Below, one piece after another: positions 6,994-12,252 of a stretch of 15,905 nt of DNA. The stretch is from a virus (lineage: Duplodnaviria; Heunggongvirae; Uroviricota; Caudoviricetes): the IMG/VR virus record IMGVR_UViG_3300021961_000056. One strand, 5' to 3'. The notes under the pieces are model-generated. The model did not search any database. It saw nothing but the letters and a program-made list of their open reading frames with translations, and was not told the origin of the DNA. The translations under genes and the position numbers were made by a program. Each line of letters begins with the position of its first letter. Within the stretch, counting starts at the first letter, position 1.

Positions 6994-7887
6994 ATGAGAT
7001 ATTCAGAAATTTTCTATTCATTCCAAGGCGAGGCCGAACTGGCGGGGACACCTGCTGTCTGGCTTCGTTTCTTTGGTTGCAATTTAAATTGTGAAGGATT
7101 TGGACAAAAGAATCCAACTGACCCTTCAACATATCAACTACCATACAAAGACTTCAATGTGGATTCTGTTAAGACCATTGAACAGCTTCCCGTGTGGTCT
7201 TTTGGTTGTGATTCATCTTATTCATGGTCACAGCGATATAAGCATTTGGCACATGATGCCTCGGTGTCTGAGGTTGCTGACCGATTGATTGAAGCCAACA
7301 AGAATCAACATAATCCCGAAGGTTTGTTCACGCATCCCACAACAGGTCAAGATGTGATGTTGTGCTTCACTGGTGGTGAACCAATGTTACAACAAAAGGC
7401 GATGATGGAGATTCTAATTGAATTGTCCATGCGTGGAAATATGCCGAAGATTGTAACGGTGGAAACTAATGCCACAAAGCCATTATCAGATGAACTTCGT
7501 AGATTTATTGCCACAGATTTTCGATTCATGGGTGGGAAGCGTTGGCACTGGTCCATGAGTCCTAAGTTGTTCAATGTATCAGGTGAAAAAGATGTGGTGA
7601 TGCCAGAAGTGATTCGTGATTATACATTCAGCATGGCAACTACAATTTTAAAGTTTGTCTGTAATGGAACGAAAGAATGTTGGAATGAACTTGACAGAGA
7701 AATGGAAAGTGTTAGATTTCTTTGTAGGCAATTCACACCTCACGTTTGGGTGATGCCTGTTGGCGCCACCAAGGATGCTCAAGAGGATCCTTATATTGGT
7801 GATTTGTGCATTGAAGCAATGAATCGTGGTTACAATGTTGCCACACGAAATCATTGTTATGTCTTTGGCAACATTATTGGGAGATAA
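6994..7887 (+). CDS. queE: 7-carboxy-7-deazaguanine synthase QueE (radical SAM)
   Basis: EIFYSFQGE..GTPAVWLRFFGCNL.C, CDSSYSW, FTGGEP, TVETNAT and SMSPKL. Start revised to ATG 6994 (GAGG at 6985-6988). Confidence 0.92.
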   Translation: MRYSEIFYSFQGEAELAGTPAVWLRFFGCNLNCEGFGQKNPTDPSTYQLPYKDFNVDSVKTIEQLPVWSFGCDSSYSWSQRYKHLAHDASVSEVADRLIEANKNQHNPEGLFTHPTTGQDVMLCFTGGEPMLQQKAMMEILIELSMRGNMPKIVTVETNATKPLSDELRRFIATDFRFMGGKRWHWSMSPKLFNVSGEKDVVMPEVIRDYTFSMATTILKFVCNGTKECWNELDREMESVRFLCRQFTPHVWVMPVGATKDAQEDPYIGDLCIEAMNRGYNVATRNHCYVFGNIIGR

Positions 7888-7888
7888 T

Positions 7889-8590
7889 ATGAAATCACAG
7901 CAGCGATATAACGCAAACGCCATTCGCAATGCTTTGGGGAAGTGCGACCCGGAGCTTGGACAAAAGGTCCATAAGCATCTTCAATCTCTTGGCGTGGAAA
8001 CACCTACTATTCAGTCGGGTGAATATGCTGACAAGAAGGTGAAGAAGATTGAAAAGCACTTTACAGGCATCATGGAAACACTTGGCATGGACTTGACTGA
8101 TGACAGCCTTCAAGATAGTCCAGCTCGTGTCGCCAAGATGTTTGTGAATGAATTGTTTTGGGGATTGGATCCTGCCATGTTCCCGAAGTGTACTGCCATT
8201 GAAAACAAGATGGGGTATGATGAGATGGTGTTGGAAAAGAACATCACAGTCACTTCATGCTGTGAGCATCACTTCGTTACCATTCATGGTGTAGCTCACG
8301 TGGCATATATCCCACGTAAGAAGGTGTTGGGTCTTAGCAAGTTGAATCGTGTTGTGGAATATTTCTCACGCCGTCCACAAGTCCAGGAACGTTTGGCTGA
8401 ACAAATTTATCATGCACTTGCCTTCATTCTGGAAACAGATGATGTGGCTGTGGTGATTGATGCTGAGCATTTCTGTGTAAAGGCACGTGGTGTGGAAGAC
8501 CCTCACTCCAACACCATCACAAGCAAGTTGGGTGGTGCCTTCAAGGCGGATCCGGCTCTTCGCGCCGAGTTCATGCATCTCATCAAGTAA
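7889..8590 (+). CDS. folE: GTP cyclohydrolase I FolE
   Basis: DSPARVAKMF, SCCEHH, AYIP, GLSKLNRVV, RRPQVQERL and HFCVKARGV. Start revised to ATG 7889 (GGAG at 7880-7883). Confidence 0.97.
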   Translation: MKSQQRYNANAIRNALGKCDPELGQKVHKHLQSLGVETPTIQSGEYADKKVKKIEKHFTGIMETLGMDLTDDSLQDSPARVAKMFVNELFWGLDPAMFPKCTAIENKMGYDEMVLEKNITVTSCCEHHFVTIHGVAHVAYIPRKKVLGLSKLNRVVEYFSRRPQVQERLAEQIYHALAFILETDDVAVVIDAEHFCVKARGVEDPHSNTITSKLGGAFKADPALRAEFMHLIK

Positions 8591-8591
8591 C

Positions 8592-9113
8592 ATGGCGTTC
8601 AATGATGATGTGAACGTGATGTTGGATTTGGAAACAATGAGTACTGAATCCAACGCCGCCATCTGTTCCATTGGTGCAGTAAAATTTTCCATTGATGAGG
8701 GCATCTTGGATAAGTTTTATTGCACCGTGGATGCAGCAGATTGCAAGAAGCATGGATTAAACATTTCTGCTGACACCGTTCAATGGTGGGCAAAGCAACC
8801 AAAAGAAGTTCTTGAAATGTTACGCAAAGATAACATCCCATTACAACAAGCACTCACAAACTTTTCTAAATGGTATGGCGTGAAAGGAATGCCTACATGG
8901 GGCTGTGGTGCGGGATTTGATAACGTCATCATTGAAAACGCCTACAAGGCGGTTGGAATGAAACGTCCTTGGACACCTTGGTTGGATCGCTGTTATCGAA
9001 CCATTAAAGAAGTAATTGTTCTTCCCTTTGAAGATAGAACAGGCACGTATCATAACGCATTGGATGATGCCATTTATCAGACCAATCATCTGATTAAATT
9101 ATTCCGGAGTTGA
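8592..9113 (+). CDS. DEDDh 3'-5' exonuclease (DexA-like / Rv2179c-like)
   Basis: Exo I VMLDLETM, SIGAVKF, TVQWW, WGCGAGFDNVI (Exo II) and HNALDDAIYQ (Exo III). Start revised to ATG 8592. Confidence 0.88.
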   Translation: MAFNDDVNVMLDLETMSTESNAAICSIGAVKFSIDEGILDKFYCTVDAADCKKHGLNISADTVQWWAKQPKEVLEMLRKDNIPLQQALTNFSKWYGVKGMPTWGCGAGFDNVIIENAYKAVGMKRPWTPWLDRCYRTIKEVIVLPFEDRTGTYHNALDDAIYQTNHLIKLFRS

Positions 9114-10413: not shown

Positions 10414-10787
10414 TGTTTATATCACGTTACATTGAAGTCACTTTTCAAAAGGAAGGGATACACAAGTATCCTGCTGCTTTAGATGATCCGAAGTTGGCTG
10501 ATGTCCAATTTCTTGGTTACCCACATAGGCATATGTTTCATTTCCGTGTCCGCGTATCTGTGACACATAATGACCGAGACATTGAATTCATTCTATTTAA
10601 GCGTGAATTGGAAAATCTGTATCAAGGTACCATGAACATTGATTACAAGAGCTGTGAAATGTTGGCAGAAGAATTGATTGGATATATTGTAAAAAATTAT
10701 CCTAGTCGTTATGTTGAAGTAGGTGTGAGTGAGGATGGAGAGAATGGTGCTGTATTAACTAATGTACTTCCGAGTGTGCTAATATGA
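10413..10787 (+). CDS. dpdL: QueD-paralog T-fold protein, DpdL-like (predicted CDG decarboxylase family)
   Basis: F..EGIH17, L34GYPH38RH40MF (LxxxHRHxF, which I recall as the DpdL signature), SCEMLAE and VSEDGENGA. Aligns by eye to QueD but lacks its catalytic Cys. TAATG-coupled to dpdA. Confidence 0.7.
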   Translation: MFISRYIEVTFQKEGIHKYPAALDDPKLADVQFLGYPHRHMFHFRVRVSVTHNDRDIEFILFKRELENLYQGTMNIDYKSCEMLAEELIGYIVKNYPSRYVEVGVSEDGENGAVLTNVLPSVLI

Positions 10788-11812
10788 TATTCATTGTCCC
10801 TATTGAACCTATTGACCAACGCTATACTAAGCAATGGTACTATAACATCCCAAAAGATTTAGATAAGAAGGGATTGAAGTATCGTATTGTAGGTGATGAC
10901 AATAGTGACTCAGGTACTACAACAGGTGCCTTCTTGAACTTCGCCTTCACCAACAAATACAAGGCACAACAAGTGCAACAAATTGCCGACTTGTTTAGCA
11001 TGGGACAAGTCATGCCCGGTGACAAGTTCTTGGTTACGGATGCTTGGAACTTTGCCATTACTGCCATTAGATACATGAGTGATTTGTTGGATATTCCCGT
11101 GGAGATTCATGGCATCTGGCATGCTGGTGCCTATGACCCATCTGATATTTTGGGTATGAAGATGAGAGGAGATGTGGCACACAATGTGGAACGTAGTTGG
11201 TTTCATGCCTGTGATTACAATTACTTTGCCACAGAATTTCATCGCACCATGTTTTTGAATAATTTGAGCATTGAAAAACAACATCATCACAAGGCAATTC
11301 GTTCTGGGCAACCTCATCTAGAATTGGTGACATCACTTGCTCGGCATCTATCAACTCCTAAGGCTGACATGGTGTTATGGCCACACAGGTATAATTCTGA
11401 CAAACAACCTGAGATTGCCGAGGCATTGAAGTTGACCATCACACAAAAGATGAATCTGTCAAAGCCAGATTATTATGATTTGGTGGGCAAGGTGAAGGCG
11501 GTGTTCAGTTGTTCACTACATGAAAATCTTGGTATCAGCATGATGGAAGGTGTCATGGCAGGAGCCATTCCCATTGTGCCAGATAGATGCAGTTATTCAG
11601 AAATGTATCTTCCAGCATTTAAATATCCAAGCGAATGGACATCTAGTTGGGATAATTTTCAAAAGTATAAGCAAGAAGTGGATGAATTCATTCGGTATCG
11701 GGTCATCAATTATGACCAGTATCAAGGTGCCATGGAAGTGCAACGTGGTATTCTATCACAAAGTTTTATGAACGCTGACATCATGTACTCTAAACTTCTG
11801 AGGAATCTATGA
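10784..11812 (+). CDS. GT-B glycosyltransferase, GTDC1/QTMAN (DUF3524)-like
   Basis: Retaining GT-B motif E-x7-E (HENLGISMME), VLWPHRYNSDKQPE, CDYNYFATEFHRTMFL, SKPDYY and G..PIVPDRCSYSEMY. Confidence 0.85.
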   Translation: MIFIVPIEPIDQRYTKQWYYNIPKDLDKKGLKYRIVGDDNSDSGTTTGAFLNFAFTNKYKAQQVQQIADLFSMGQVMPGDKFLVTDAWNFAITAIRYMSDLLDIPVEIHGIWHAGAYDPSDILGMKMRGDVAHNVERSWFHACDYNYFATEFHRTMFLNNLSIEKQHHHKAIRSGQPHLELVTSLARHLSTPKADMVLWPHRYNSDKQPEIAEALKLTITQKMNLSKPDYYDLVGKVKAVFSCSLHENLGISMMEGVMAGAIPIVPDRCSYSEMYLPAFKYPSEWTSSWDNFQKYKQEVDEFIRYRVINYDQYQGAMEVQRGILSQSFMNADIMYSKLLRNL

Positions 11813-12252
11813 CCTATTATTCTACAAAGACATTTGGTAATGACCGTGGATTGAGCTGTGCGTTTCGTCAGTGGCGTGCCACTTCACATTGTAACCAAGT
11901 TCATGGATATAGTTTAGGATTTCGTTTCATTTTTGAATCCAAGTCTTTGGATGAAAGAAATTGGGTATATGATTTCGGTGATACTAAATGGATTTTAGAA
12001 TATCTTCGTGAAGCGTTTGACCATACAACTGCTGTAGCAGCAGATGACCCACACCTGGAACTATTCAAGCAAATGGATGAAGCAGGTATCCTCACACTTC
12101 GCATCTTCTCATCAGTAGGGTGTGAAAAGTTTGCCGAGATAGTGTATACTGATGTTGCCCCTCAGATTGCTGAACGAAGCAAGAAACGTGTTCGTCTTAA
12201 GAGTGTGGAAGTATTTGAACATGGAGCTAATTCCGCCATCTACGAGGGATAA
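11809..12252 (+). CDS. queD: 6-carboxy-5,6,7,8-tetrahydropterin synthase QueD (HGY variant)
   Basis: HCNQVHGY, WVYDFG, FDH, CEKFAE and VEVFEH; T-fold PTPS family size (147 aa). Confidence 0.88.
   Translation: MTYYSTKTFGNDRGLSCAFRQWRATSHCNQVHGYSLGFRFIFESKSLDERNWVYDFGDTKWILEYLREAFDHTTAVAADDPHLELFKQMDEAGILTLRIFSSVGCEKFAEIVYTDVAPQIAERSKKRVRLKSVEVFEHGANSAIYEG

Follow-up and report, generated by a model that had tools for sequence, protein, structure and literature searches.

A QTMAN-Related Glycosyltransferase Encoded beside DpdL in the 7-Deazaguanine Gene Modules of Marine T4-like and Other Phages

A Deazaguanine Gene Run in a T4-like Phage

The window analyzed here, by which we mean the whole 15,905-nt stretch of the IMG/VR virus record IMGVR_UViG_3300021961_000056, comes from a T4-like phage and carries all of its genes on the + strand. 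It opens with genes for a prohead protease, a scaffold protein, the gp23 major capsid protein, a tail-tube-like protein, UvsY, UvsW, a small Sm-like protein and the gp55 late sigma factor, followed by a tight run, queE-folE-exonuclease-dpdA-dpdL-GT-queD (Table 1), and then by gp47, gp46 and peptide deformylase. The subject of this work is the glycosyltransferase (GT) of that run, which, judged from its sequence, is a member of a phage-specific new sister family of the queuosine-tRNA mannosyltransferase QTMAN, and which is tied to deazaguanine by its gene context, through strict genomic coupling to DpdL. It would represent a previously undescribed accessory step of DpdL-type 7-deazaguanine DNA modification, and we lean, by a modest degree, toward the view that it glycosylates the 7-deazaguanine of the DpdL branch, most likely in DNA after insertion of the base.

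The genes of the run are joined by overlaps (ATGA, TAATG) or by 1-nt spacing, and FolE, QueD, QueE, DpdA and DpdL are all encoded in it, which is the complement of a DpdL-type module; a Pfam search of the window found neither QueC nor QueF. The assignment of the 124-residue protein upstream of the GT follows from the peptide LGYPHRHMF, which fits the signature LxxxHRHxF of DpdL, a protein proposed to be a 7-carboxy-7-deazaguanine (CDG) decarboxylase (Cui, Hutinet et al., NAR 2023, PMC10516641), and its tblastn match, phiST gp040, adjoins a MazG gene as CGPG_00067 does. The 432-residue protein found no match in sequence searches of Pfam and the PDB, but we assign it as a DpdA-family transglycosylase because it contains a DSGG motif and because tblastn matches it to phage proteins annotated as queuine tRNA-ribosyltransferase (E 2e-50), as well as to a gene of Vibrio phage nt-1 (E 4e-31), with matching Vibrio phage genes elsewhere annotated as resembling tRNA-guanine transglycosylase (TGT). 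With both DpdL and DpdA identified, the run can be described as the DpdL branch of the phage 7-deazaguanine DNA pathway plus one extra gene.

Table 1. Genes of the deazaguanine run in the window
Feature	Coordinates	Strand	Basis of assignment
QueE-like radical S-adenosylmethionine (SAM) enzyme (CDG synthase)	6994..7887	+	phrog_2076 "QueE-like radical SAM domain", E 4e-46; weak Fer4_12; ATG at 6994
FolE, GTP cyclohydrolase I	7889..8590	+	Pfam PF01227, E 3e-62; ATG at 7889, right behind the queE stop
DEDDh / Rv2179c-like 3'-5' exonuclease	8592..9113	+	Pfam PF16473, E 4e-43; ATG at 8592
DpdA-like DNA guanine transglycosylase, 432 aa	9115..10413	+	tblastn, DSGG motif, phrog_10773
DpdL, QueD-like T-fold protein, 124 aa	10413..10787	+	LGYPHRHMF, tblastn to phiST gp040, phrog_17812; stop overlaps GT start
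QTMAN-related retaining GT-B glycosyltransferase (predicted), 342 aa	10784..11812	+	Open reading frame, AlphaFold model, hhalign to QTMAN_N proteins
QueD, 6-carboxytetrahydropterin (CPH4) synthase, 6-pyruvoyltetrahydropterin synthase (PTPS) fold	11809..12252	+	Pfam PF01242, E 1e-18; ATGA junction, start overlaps GT stop

Megablast of the window matched no phage record; the record closest to it, an 18-kb IMG/VR contig, has identical gene order and a GT that is 95% identical. Promoter and terminator scans of the window gave results at chance level.

Family and Fold of the Glycosyltransferase

The GT gene, which an initial annotation made from the DNA alone had placed correctly, starts with an ATG at 10784 that overlaps the upstream stop as ATGA and ends with its stop at 11812, encoding 342 residues on the + strand. 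As a single query, the protein obtains from Pfam a sub-threshold Glycos_transf_1 match alone, no match in NCBIfam or the PDB, and weak, generic glycosyltransferase matches in PHROGs. Its relatives are nevertheless numerous (1,526 in 90%-identity clusters and 1,101 in 50%-identity representatives) and, in a protein language-model atlas, almost wholly viral, the atlas matches being viral hypothetical proteins and generic GT4 clusters; no close relative was found in bacterial genome contigs.

We aligned 50 family members that are 28–72% identical to the window GT, 39 of which return a Glycos_transf_1 match. Residues H201, R202, K207, E247 and E255 are invariant or at least 90% conserved in this alignment, and correspond to the R/K pair and the E-x7-E motif of retaining GT4 enzymes. 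The N-terminal domain is likewise rich in conserved positions (E8, R13, Y14, W18, T56, K60, Q63, D86, W88, Y97, H113–G115, Y117, D118, D121, E136, D144 and H153), and the many aromatic and charged residues among them suggest that the family acts on one fixed acceptor.

The AlphaFold model of the GT (pLDDT 94.9, pTM 0.92) consists of two Rossmann-like domains in a GT-B fold, and comparison of this model using VIA aligns 282–317 residues with a Z score of 21–25.6 and a root-mean-square deviation of 2.6–3.8 Å to sucrose-phosphate synthase (SPS), BshA, MshA, GlgM, PimA and other retaining GT-B enzymes. The window GT thus combines the two Rossmann-like domains, the E-x7-E motif and the R/K pair of a retaining GT-B/GT4-type enzyme. 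On the strength of the predicted model, the structure comparison sets the fold and the retaining class of the GT and leaves the subfamilies unseparated: fold searches (Foldseek on Swiss-Prot models, the PDB and AFDB clusters, with VIA re-ranking) list generic retaining GT-B enzymes first, and GTDC1 is not among the 30 Swiss-Prot matches listed. As these rankings do not discriminate within GT-B, we used them neither for nor against a link to QTMAN. Taken together, the conserved residues and the model predict an active, retaining glycosyltransferase that uses a nucleotide-sugar donor.

Relationship to QTMAN and the DUF3524 Proteins

The initial annotation had likened the GT to the eukaryotic enzyme QTMAN/GTDC1, an α-mannosyltransferase that uses GDP-mannose to mannosylate Q34 of tRNA-Asp, and had proposed on this basis that the phage protein glycosylates a deazaguanine in DNA, or alternatively queuosine in host tRNA. 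The corresponding Pfam family, PF12038 (QTMAN_N), was formerly known as DUF3524, and we used its bacterial members from Bacteroidota genomes as a comparison set standing in for human GTDC1. Of 401 Bacteroidota genomes sampled, 102 encode PF12038 proteins, frequently as a pair of ~370-residue paralogues with ~39% identity (loci L032–L049 and L069–L080), while a sample of 201 cyanobacterial genomes yielded none. One bacterial PF12038 protein that we checked consists of QTMAN_N followed by Glycos_transf_1. A sequence search of the PDB found no QTMAN structure.

Whole-genome profile searches single out these proteins among the glycosyltransferases of their genomes. When the phage-family profile was run against five whole Bacteroidota genomes in six frames, all ten top matches were PF12038 genes (E 4e-10 to 2e-14, 40–54 bits), whereas the best other glycosyltransferase of each genome reached E 3e-4 to 7e-4 and ~20 bits in four of the five, with no such match in the fifth. 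In line with this, hhalign of the phage family against the QTMAN_N family gave a probability of 99.3% (E 2e-20) over 283 colinear columns, which rose to 99.5% (E 3.7e-23) with 29 more diverse QTMAN_N proteins, compared to 51% (E 1.6e-4, 72 columns) and 1.6% for control alignments with the next-best GT4 families of the same genomes. The reverse search with a profile of the bacterial QTMAN_N family returned one candidate each in the complete genomes of phages Phosso, PAC2 and ACP17 (469, 286 and 156 kb), and in every case this was the GT homologue. The two families are therefore mutual best matches among GT4 enzymes, with colinear, full-length homology and the two domains in identical order. The proposed specific relationship to QTMAN/GTDC1-DUF3524 is borne out by this margin of ~25 bits over generic GT4 enzymes and by the hhalign probabilities, and neither generic GT4 families nor the T4 α-glucosyltransferase family, which the initial annotation had named as the outcome that would count against it, outrank DUF3524 in the sequence-profile searches.

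At the level of motifs, all four segments that had been quoted in support of the relationship are present in the GT translation (PIEPIDQRYTKQ, CDYNYFATEFHRTMFL, VLWPHRYNSDKQPE and SKPDYY...SCSLHENLGISMMEGVMAGAIPIVPDRCSYSEMY), and their counterparts in the bacterial QTMAN_N consensus are LEPFFSGSHKQW, ADKxxFNSxYH, ILWNHRWEYDKNP and VTSxQDFFGGSVxEAxYCxCxPLLPNRLAYPE. In the C-terminal domain, QTMAN and the phage GT have in common [FW]-x-[HN]-R-x3-[DE]-K-x-P, and E/D-x7-E followed by C-x-P-L-x-P-x-R/x-L-x-Y-x-E, in place of the usual GRL...KG and GG loops of GT4 enzymes; in addition, L-E-P lies on the first strand and A/x-D-x-x-x-F-[AN]-[TS]-x-[FY]-H closes the N-terminal domain of both. The window GT carries this C-domain signature as WPHRYNSDKQPE and HENLGISMMEG...IPIVPDRCSYSE, where the phage family consensus reads FPHRxxPEKQP and QETLGIxxxEG...IPxVPDRLSYxE and the bacterial QTMAN_N consensus reads WNHRWEYDKNP and QDFFGGSVxEA...PLLPNRLAYPE. 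Residue K207, which is present in at least 90% of the aligned phage family members and lies inside a motif common with QTMAN_N, may correspond to the catalytic lysine K296 of human QTMAN. QTMAN itself acts on queuosine already in tRNA, and human K296 has been reported to be needed for the formation of mannosylqueuosine (manQ) (bioRxiv 10.64898/2026.06.28.735034). The characterized member of the QTMAN family thus acts on a 7-deazaguanine nucleoside inside a nucleic acid.

The differences are also substantial. Overall identity is ~17%, the phage GT has 342 residues compared to ~370–400 in the bacterial proteins, and the phage GT is viral and sits within a DNA deazaguanine pathway that cannot make queuosine. 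At the sequence level, we take the homology to indicate shared ancestry and perhaps a similar donor, and it does not support the same acceptor.

Nor does the genomic context of the bacterial proteins bring them closer to queuosine. The inspected bacterial QTMAN_N genes have Rrf2 regulators, an Exo_endo_phos protein, DnaB, an M28 peptidase and MutL as neighbors, with no queuosine genes seen beside them, and because of this lack of queuosine genes their context gives no functional clue. The suggestion that the phage enzyme could hint at the function of bacterial DUF3524 proteins thus finds nothing to build on here, and the window says nothing yet on that point. In one Bacteroidota genome, an Exo_endo_phos gene comes after paralogue 1 and overlaps it.

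Genomic Coupling of the Glycosyltransferase to DpdL

A search of 50,697 phage records found DpdL in 28. The GT was identified in 18 (tblastn gave 17 and a profile one more), and DpdL is present in every one of these 18, which come from at least seven unrelated phage lineages. The same association extends to metagenomic sequences, where each of 13 IMG/VR loci with a GT relative has a DpdL homologue within ~4 kb, usually adjacent, with FolE and QueE nearby, and where two contigs encoding a GT that is 29% identical to that of the window have it directly 3' of DpdL. Sinorhizobium phage Phosso, Pseudomonas phage PAC2 (PA5oct group) and Acidovorax phage ACP17 likewise encode DpdL beside the GT or close to it, and the order in Synechococcus phage BUCT-ZZ01 is dpdA-dpdL-GT-exonuclease. 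These modules always include QueE, and also DpdA where it is identifiable (the window, ACP17 and BUCT-ZZ01). In a search with a control that was positive in 14 of 14 genomes, QueC was missing from three complete genomes of GT-bearing phages; with QueC absent, the pathway would stop at CDG or at 7-deazaguanine (DG).

Some relatives of the window GT are accompanied by genes of sugar metabolism. At one relative locus (L010:9234-9995), a nucleotidyltransferase fused to a mannose-6-phosphate-isomerase-type cupin (E 3e-24) overlaps the GT start, in a cluster that also encodes a DegT sugar aminotransferase downstream, a 2-oxoglutarate (2OG)-Fe(II) oxygenase and a SAM synthetase; at another (L063:8407-8808), a lone MannoseP_isomer cupin lies 3' of the GT, together with a methyltransferase. 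From the nucleotidyltransferase-cupin, DegT and cupin genes beside these relatives, the GT appears to be coupled to sugar activation in some lineages, which suggests lineage-specific sugar donors, with a hint of mannose. The window contains no sugar-activation genes, and the donor of its GT must therefore come from the host.

The deazaguanine modules of PAC2 (L002:10324-10758) and BUCT-ZZ01 (L051:2450-2911) contain phosphoribosyltransferase genes, a hint that a deazaguanine nucleotide is also made in some lineages.

Proposed Function and Mechanism

Taking these observations into account, we propose the following sequence of steps, in which the acceptor, donor, timing and biological role of the GT are inferred. 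FolE, QueD and QueE would provide CDG, which DpdL would decarboxylate to 7-deazaguanine, as proposed by Cui et al., and DpdA would then swap guanine in the phage DNA for 7-deazaguanine. The GT would move a sugar from a nucleoside diphosphate (NDP)-sugar onto the modified base with retention of configuration, most likely giving an α-linkage. In the phage of the window, this donor would be host-derived, with GDP-mannose as our leading guess on account of the QTMAN kinship and the mannose-type cupins found beside relatives. We place glycosylation after insertion of the base because QTMAN acts on queuosine in tRNA, and because of the other phage DNA glycosyltransferases. The outcome would be a bulkier modification of G, with added protection against restriction enzymes and against defenses that recognize plain deazaguanine. 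PA5oct, which carries both DpdL and the GT, has DNA that resists restriction enzymes with G in their sites, from which a modified G has been inferred (PMC12191111).

A number of points weigh against this proposal. The most important is chemical, in that 7-deazaguanine has no hydroxyl group, such that the sugar would have to be attached at N2, O6, a ring carbon or, as an ester, the carboxyl group of CDG, and we know of no precedent in DNA for glycosylation at any of these positions. The same lack of a hydroxyl is also what chiefly makes the case interesting. In the literature searched, we found eight 7-deazaguanine derivatives in phage DNA, none with a sugar, and no report of a glycosylated or hexosylated deazaguanine in phage DNA. 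The decarboxylase activity of DpdL in the preceding step is itself a prediction, and its reconstitution in E. coli failed (PMC10516641). Furthermore, ten DpdL records (about a third), comprising phiST and its relatives, RHph_I1_18, Bakedbeans, Ahp1, D479 and MA9V-3, have no GT, which, together with the presence of DpdL in all 18 GT records, makes the GT an optional add-on to the DpdL branch that is not found without DpdL. To a lesser extent, the composition of the family also argues against a general DNA binder, as its members are acidic (median isoelectric point 5.8) with no obvious general DNA-binding surface, and neither net charge nor isoelectric point pointed to a basic DNA-binding protein.

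The remaining points concern what can be read from the QTMAN kinship. When the two halves of the proteins are aligned separately, the C-terminal, donor-binding halves of the phage and QTMAN_N families match at E 1e-20, whereas the N-terminal, acceptor-binding halves reach only E 6-8e-4 (probability 24–29%, 135–139 colinear columns), compared to E 0.4–0.6 for the control GT4 families. The PF12038 model, which gives 135–225 bits on Bacteroidota proteins matched in full, finds no match in the window protein (E≤10), in the 50 family members (E≤1) or in five GT-bearing phage records (E≤10). As PF12038 is blind to the phage N-terminal domain and the similarity there is marginal, we regard the phage GTs as a sister family and not as members of QTMAN, and because the specific signal sits in the donor-binding C-terminal domain, homology alone leaves the acceptor unfixed. 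Of the interpretation in the initial annotation, the kinship with QTMAN and the deazaguanine gene context have thus held up, while an ancient link of this family to 7-deazaguanine acceptors does not emerge from halves that diverge in this way, and neither does a link of the bacterial proteins to queuosine.

Alternative Explanations

The alternative that survives best, which we nevertheless consider unlikely, is that the GT glycosylates the free 7-deazaguanine base or its nucleotide before it reaches DNA, with DpdA inserting the decorated base or the glycoside acting outside DNA. The conserved, often translationally coupled dpdL-GT pair would fit two consecutive small-molecule steps, as would the acidic character of the GT and the phosphoribosyltransferase genes in the PAC2 and BUCT-ZZ01 modules, and the huimycin enzyme HuiG provides a precedent for glycosylation of a free 7-deazapurine (bioRxiv 10.64898/2026.04.15.718813). 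Against this, the one characterized relative, QTMAN, works on a base that is already in a polynucleotide, a transglycosylase could not insert an N9 glycoside, and apart from the GT-B fold we found nothing that specifically links the GT to HuiG-type enzymes.

Improbable in our estimation is a GT that merely shares the cassette and targets something else, be it a modified DNA pyrimidine, a protein or a glycan of the cell envelope. Phage GT-B enzymes of the BshA/PimA type do glycosylate pyrimidines in DNA (PMC13326640), and the Pfam and PHROG searches point to a generic glycosyltransferase only. However, this reading is difficult to square with the co-occurrence of GT and DpdL in every GT record across at least seven unrelated lineages or with an adjacency that persists at 29% identity, and family searches of the window found no pyrimidine hydroxylase or hydroxymethylase.

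Glycosylation of queuosine, or of another 7-deazaguanine, in host or phage tRNA, through which translation would be tuned during infection, was the alternative acceptor offered by the initial annotation and draws on the homology to the QTMAN family, but we consider it very unlikely: the window has neither QueC nor any later queuosine gene, QueC being absent from three complete GT-bearing genomes too, the acceptor domain is far removed from that of QTMAN_N, and the GT strictly co-occurs with DpdL and DNA modification genes and not with tRNA genes, of which the window has none. Finally, we consider it about as unlikely that the GT has no role in DNA and adds a sugar to a pterin, an intermediate or side product of the FolE/QueD steps, in the manner of the cyanobacterial tetrahydrobiopterin glucosyltransferase. 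FolE and the PTPS-fold QueD do flank the GT, pterin side chains have the hydroxyls that deazaguanine lacks, and the pterin glucosyltransferase 9v0l is among the structural neighbors (Z 21.4). However, dozens of other GT-B enzymes rank as high as 9v0l or higher, the tight partner of the GT is DpdL and not FolE/QueD, QueE and DpdA make and insert deazaguanine, and the hosts extend far beyond producers of pterin glycosides.

Comparison with Other Systems and Significance

The closest characterized counterpart to the module of the window is the DpdL-type system of Cellulophaga phage phiST (PMC10516641), which likewise has FolE, QueD, QueE, a DpdL with LxxxHRHxF, a DpdA-family transglycosylase and an associated exonuclease, and no QueC. 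It differs in having no homologue of the window GT, in contrast to the window itself, Phosso, the PA5oct-like phages, ACP17, BUDD/X1, BCSR5 and BUCT-ZZ01, where the GT stands beside DpdL, and its DpdA has ~260 residues, compared to 432 in the window. In phiST DNA, all G is replaced by plain 2'-deoxy-7-deazaguanine (dDG); the text of Cui et al. mentions no glycosyltransferase (PMC10516641).

With respect to the chemistry, the window GT resembles the T4 α- and β-glucosyltransferases and the GT-B enzymes acting on 5-hydroxymethylcytosine (hmC) and 5-hydroxycytosine in being a phage-encoded GT-B protein, in the use of NDP-sugars, and in decorating, as we propose, an already modified base as a counter-defense (PMC13326640, PMC13216743). 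The acceptor of those enzymes is a pyrimidine hydroxyl, whereas the base associated with the window GT is a purine analogue without one, and neither the window GT nor the 50 family members have a Pfam match to the T4 DNA glucosyltransferase families. Indeed, all glycosylated DNA bases that we know of are pyrimidines with a hydroxyl handle.

HuiG is similar in being a GT-B/GT4-type enzyme that places a sugar onto a 7-deazapurine made by FolE/QueD/QueE(/QueC), and differs in that it acts on the free, O-methylated preQ0 base in actinomycete secondary metabolism, where there is no DpdA; we found no specific sequence relationship between it and the window GT. QTMAN on queuosine-tRNA (bioRxiv 10.64898/2026.06.28.735034) and HuiG on a free 7-deazapurine base (bioRxiv 10.64898/2026.04.15.718813) are thus the precedents for glycosyltransferases that act on 7-deazaguanines.

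In its fullest form, our proposal would be that GT-bearing DpdL phages (among them abundant marine T4-like phages, PA5oct, ACP17 and BUCT-ZZ01) carry glycosylated 7-deazaguanine DNA, the first sugar-decorated purine analogue in any genome, with a bond that may be N2-, O6- or C-glycosidic, and that QTMAN and the phage GT go back to a common ancestor for which 7-deazaguanine in nucleic acids was already the substrate. We offer this wider scenario tentatively, as a possibility that falls somewhat short of an even chance. If true, a glycosylated deazaguanine would be a new class of DNA hypermodification, possibly involving new glycosyl-transfer chemistry, and would bear on restriction, on DNA-glycosylase defenses against deazaguanine phages and on the sequencing of such genomes. 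It could also account for the modified G of PA5oct, and for the fact that the dpdL/dpdA pair of ACP17 yields no dDG in E. coli. The family is large, with >1,500 mostly marine clusters at 90% identity, which would make the modification a common one in the ocean virome. The specific kinship with QTMAN also offers a first functional lead for the uncharacterized DUF3524 proteins, which are found in a quarter of the sampled Bacteroidota.

Further Observations on the Neighboring Genes

The DpdA-like protein of the window is ~170 residues longer than phiST DpdA3, and its first ~275 residues alone match the homologues of ACP17 and the Vibrio phages, the C-terminal part being variable. The exonuclease gene (8592–9113) sits between folE and dpdA with 1-nt gaps; its homologue in Synechococcus phage BUCT-ZZ01 lies 3' of the GT, and in phiST a DEDDh exonuclease adjoins queD. 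A DEDDh exonuclease may thus be a regular component of DpdL-type modules.

The DpdL closest to that of the window (64% identity) is found in Rhizobium phage RHph_I1_18, beside FolE and a macro-domain (Appr-1-p processing) protein. We note that g47, g46 and the peptide deformylase gene of this phage are ordered as in the window, that its genome contains no GT, and that a 14-kb stretch of it gave no DpdA match.

The best matches to FolE in the cellular genome collections are 61% identical and lie on short contigs, from a Prochlorococcus single-cell assembly and a cyanobacterial metagenome-assembled genome. These contigs are probably phage DNA, and the FolE matches hint that the phage lineage of the window infects marine picocyanobacteria.

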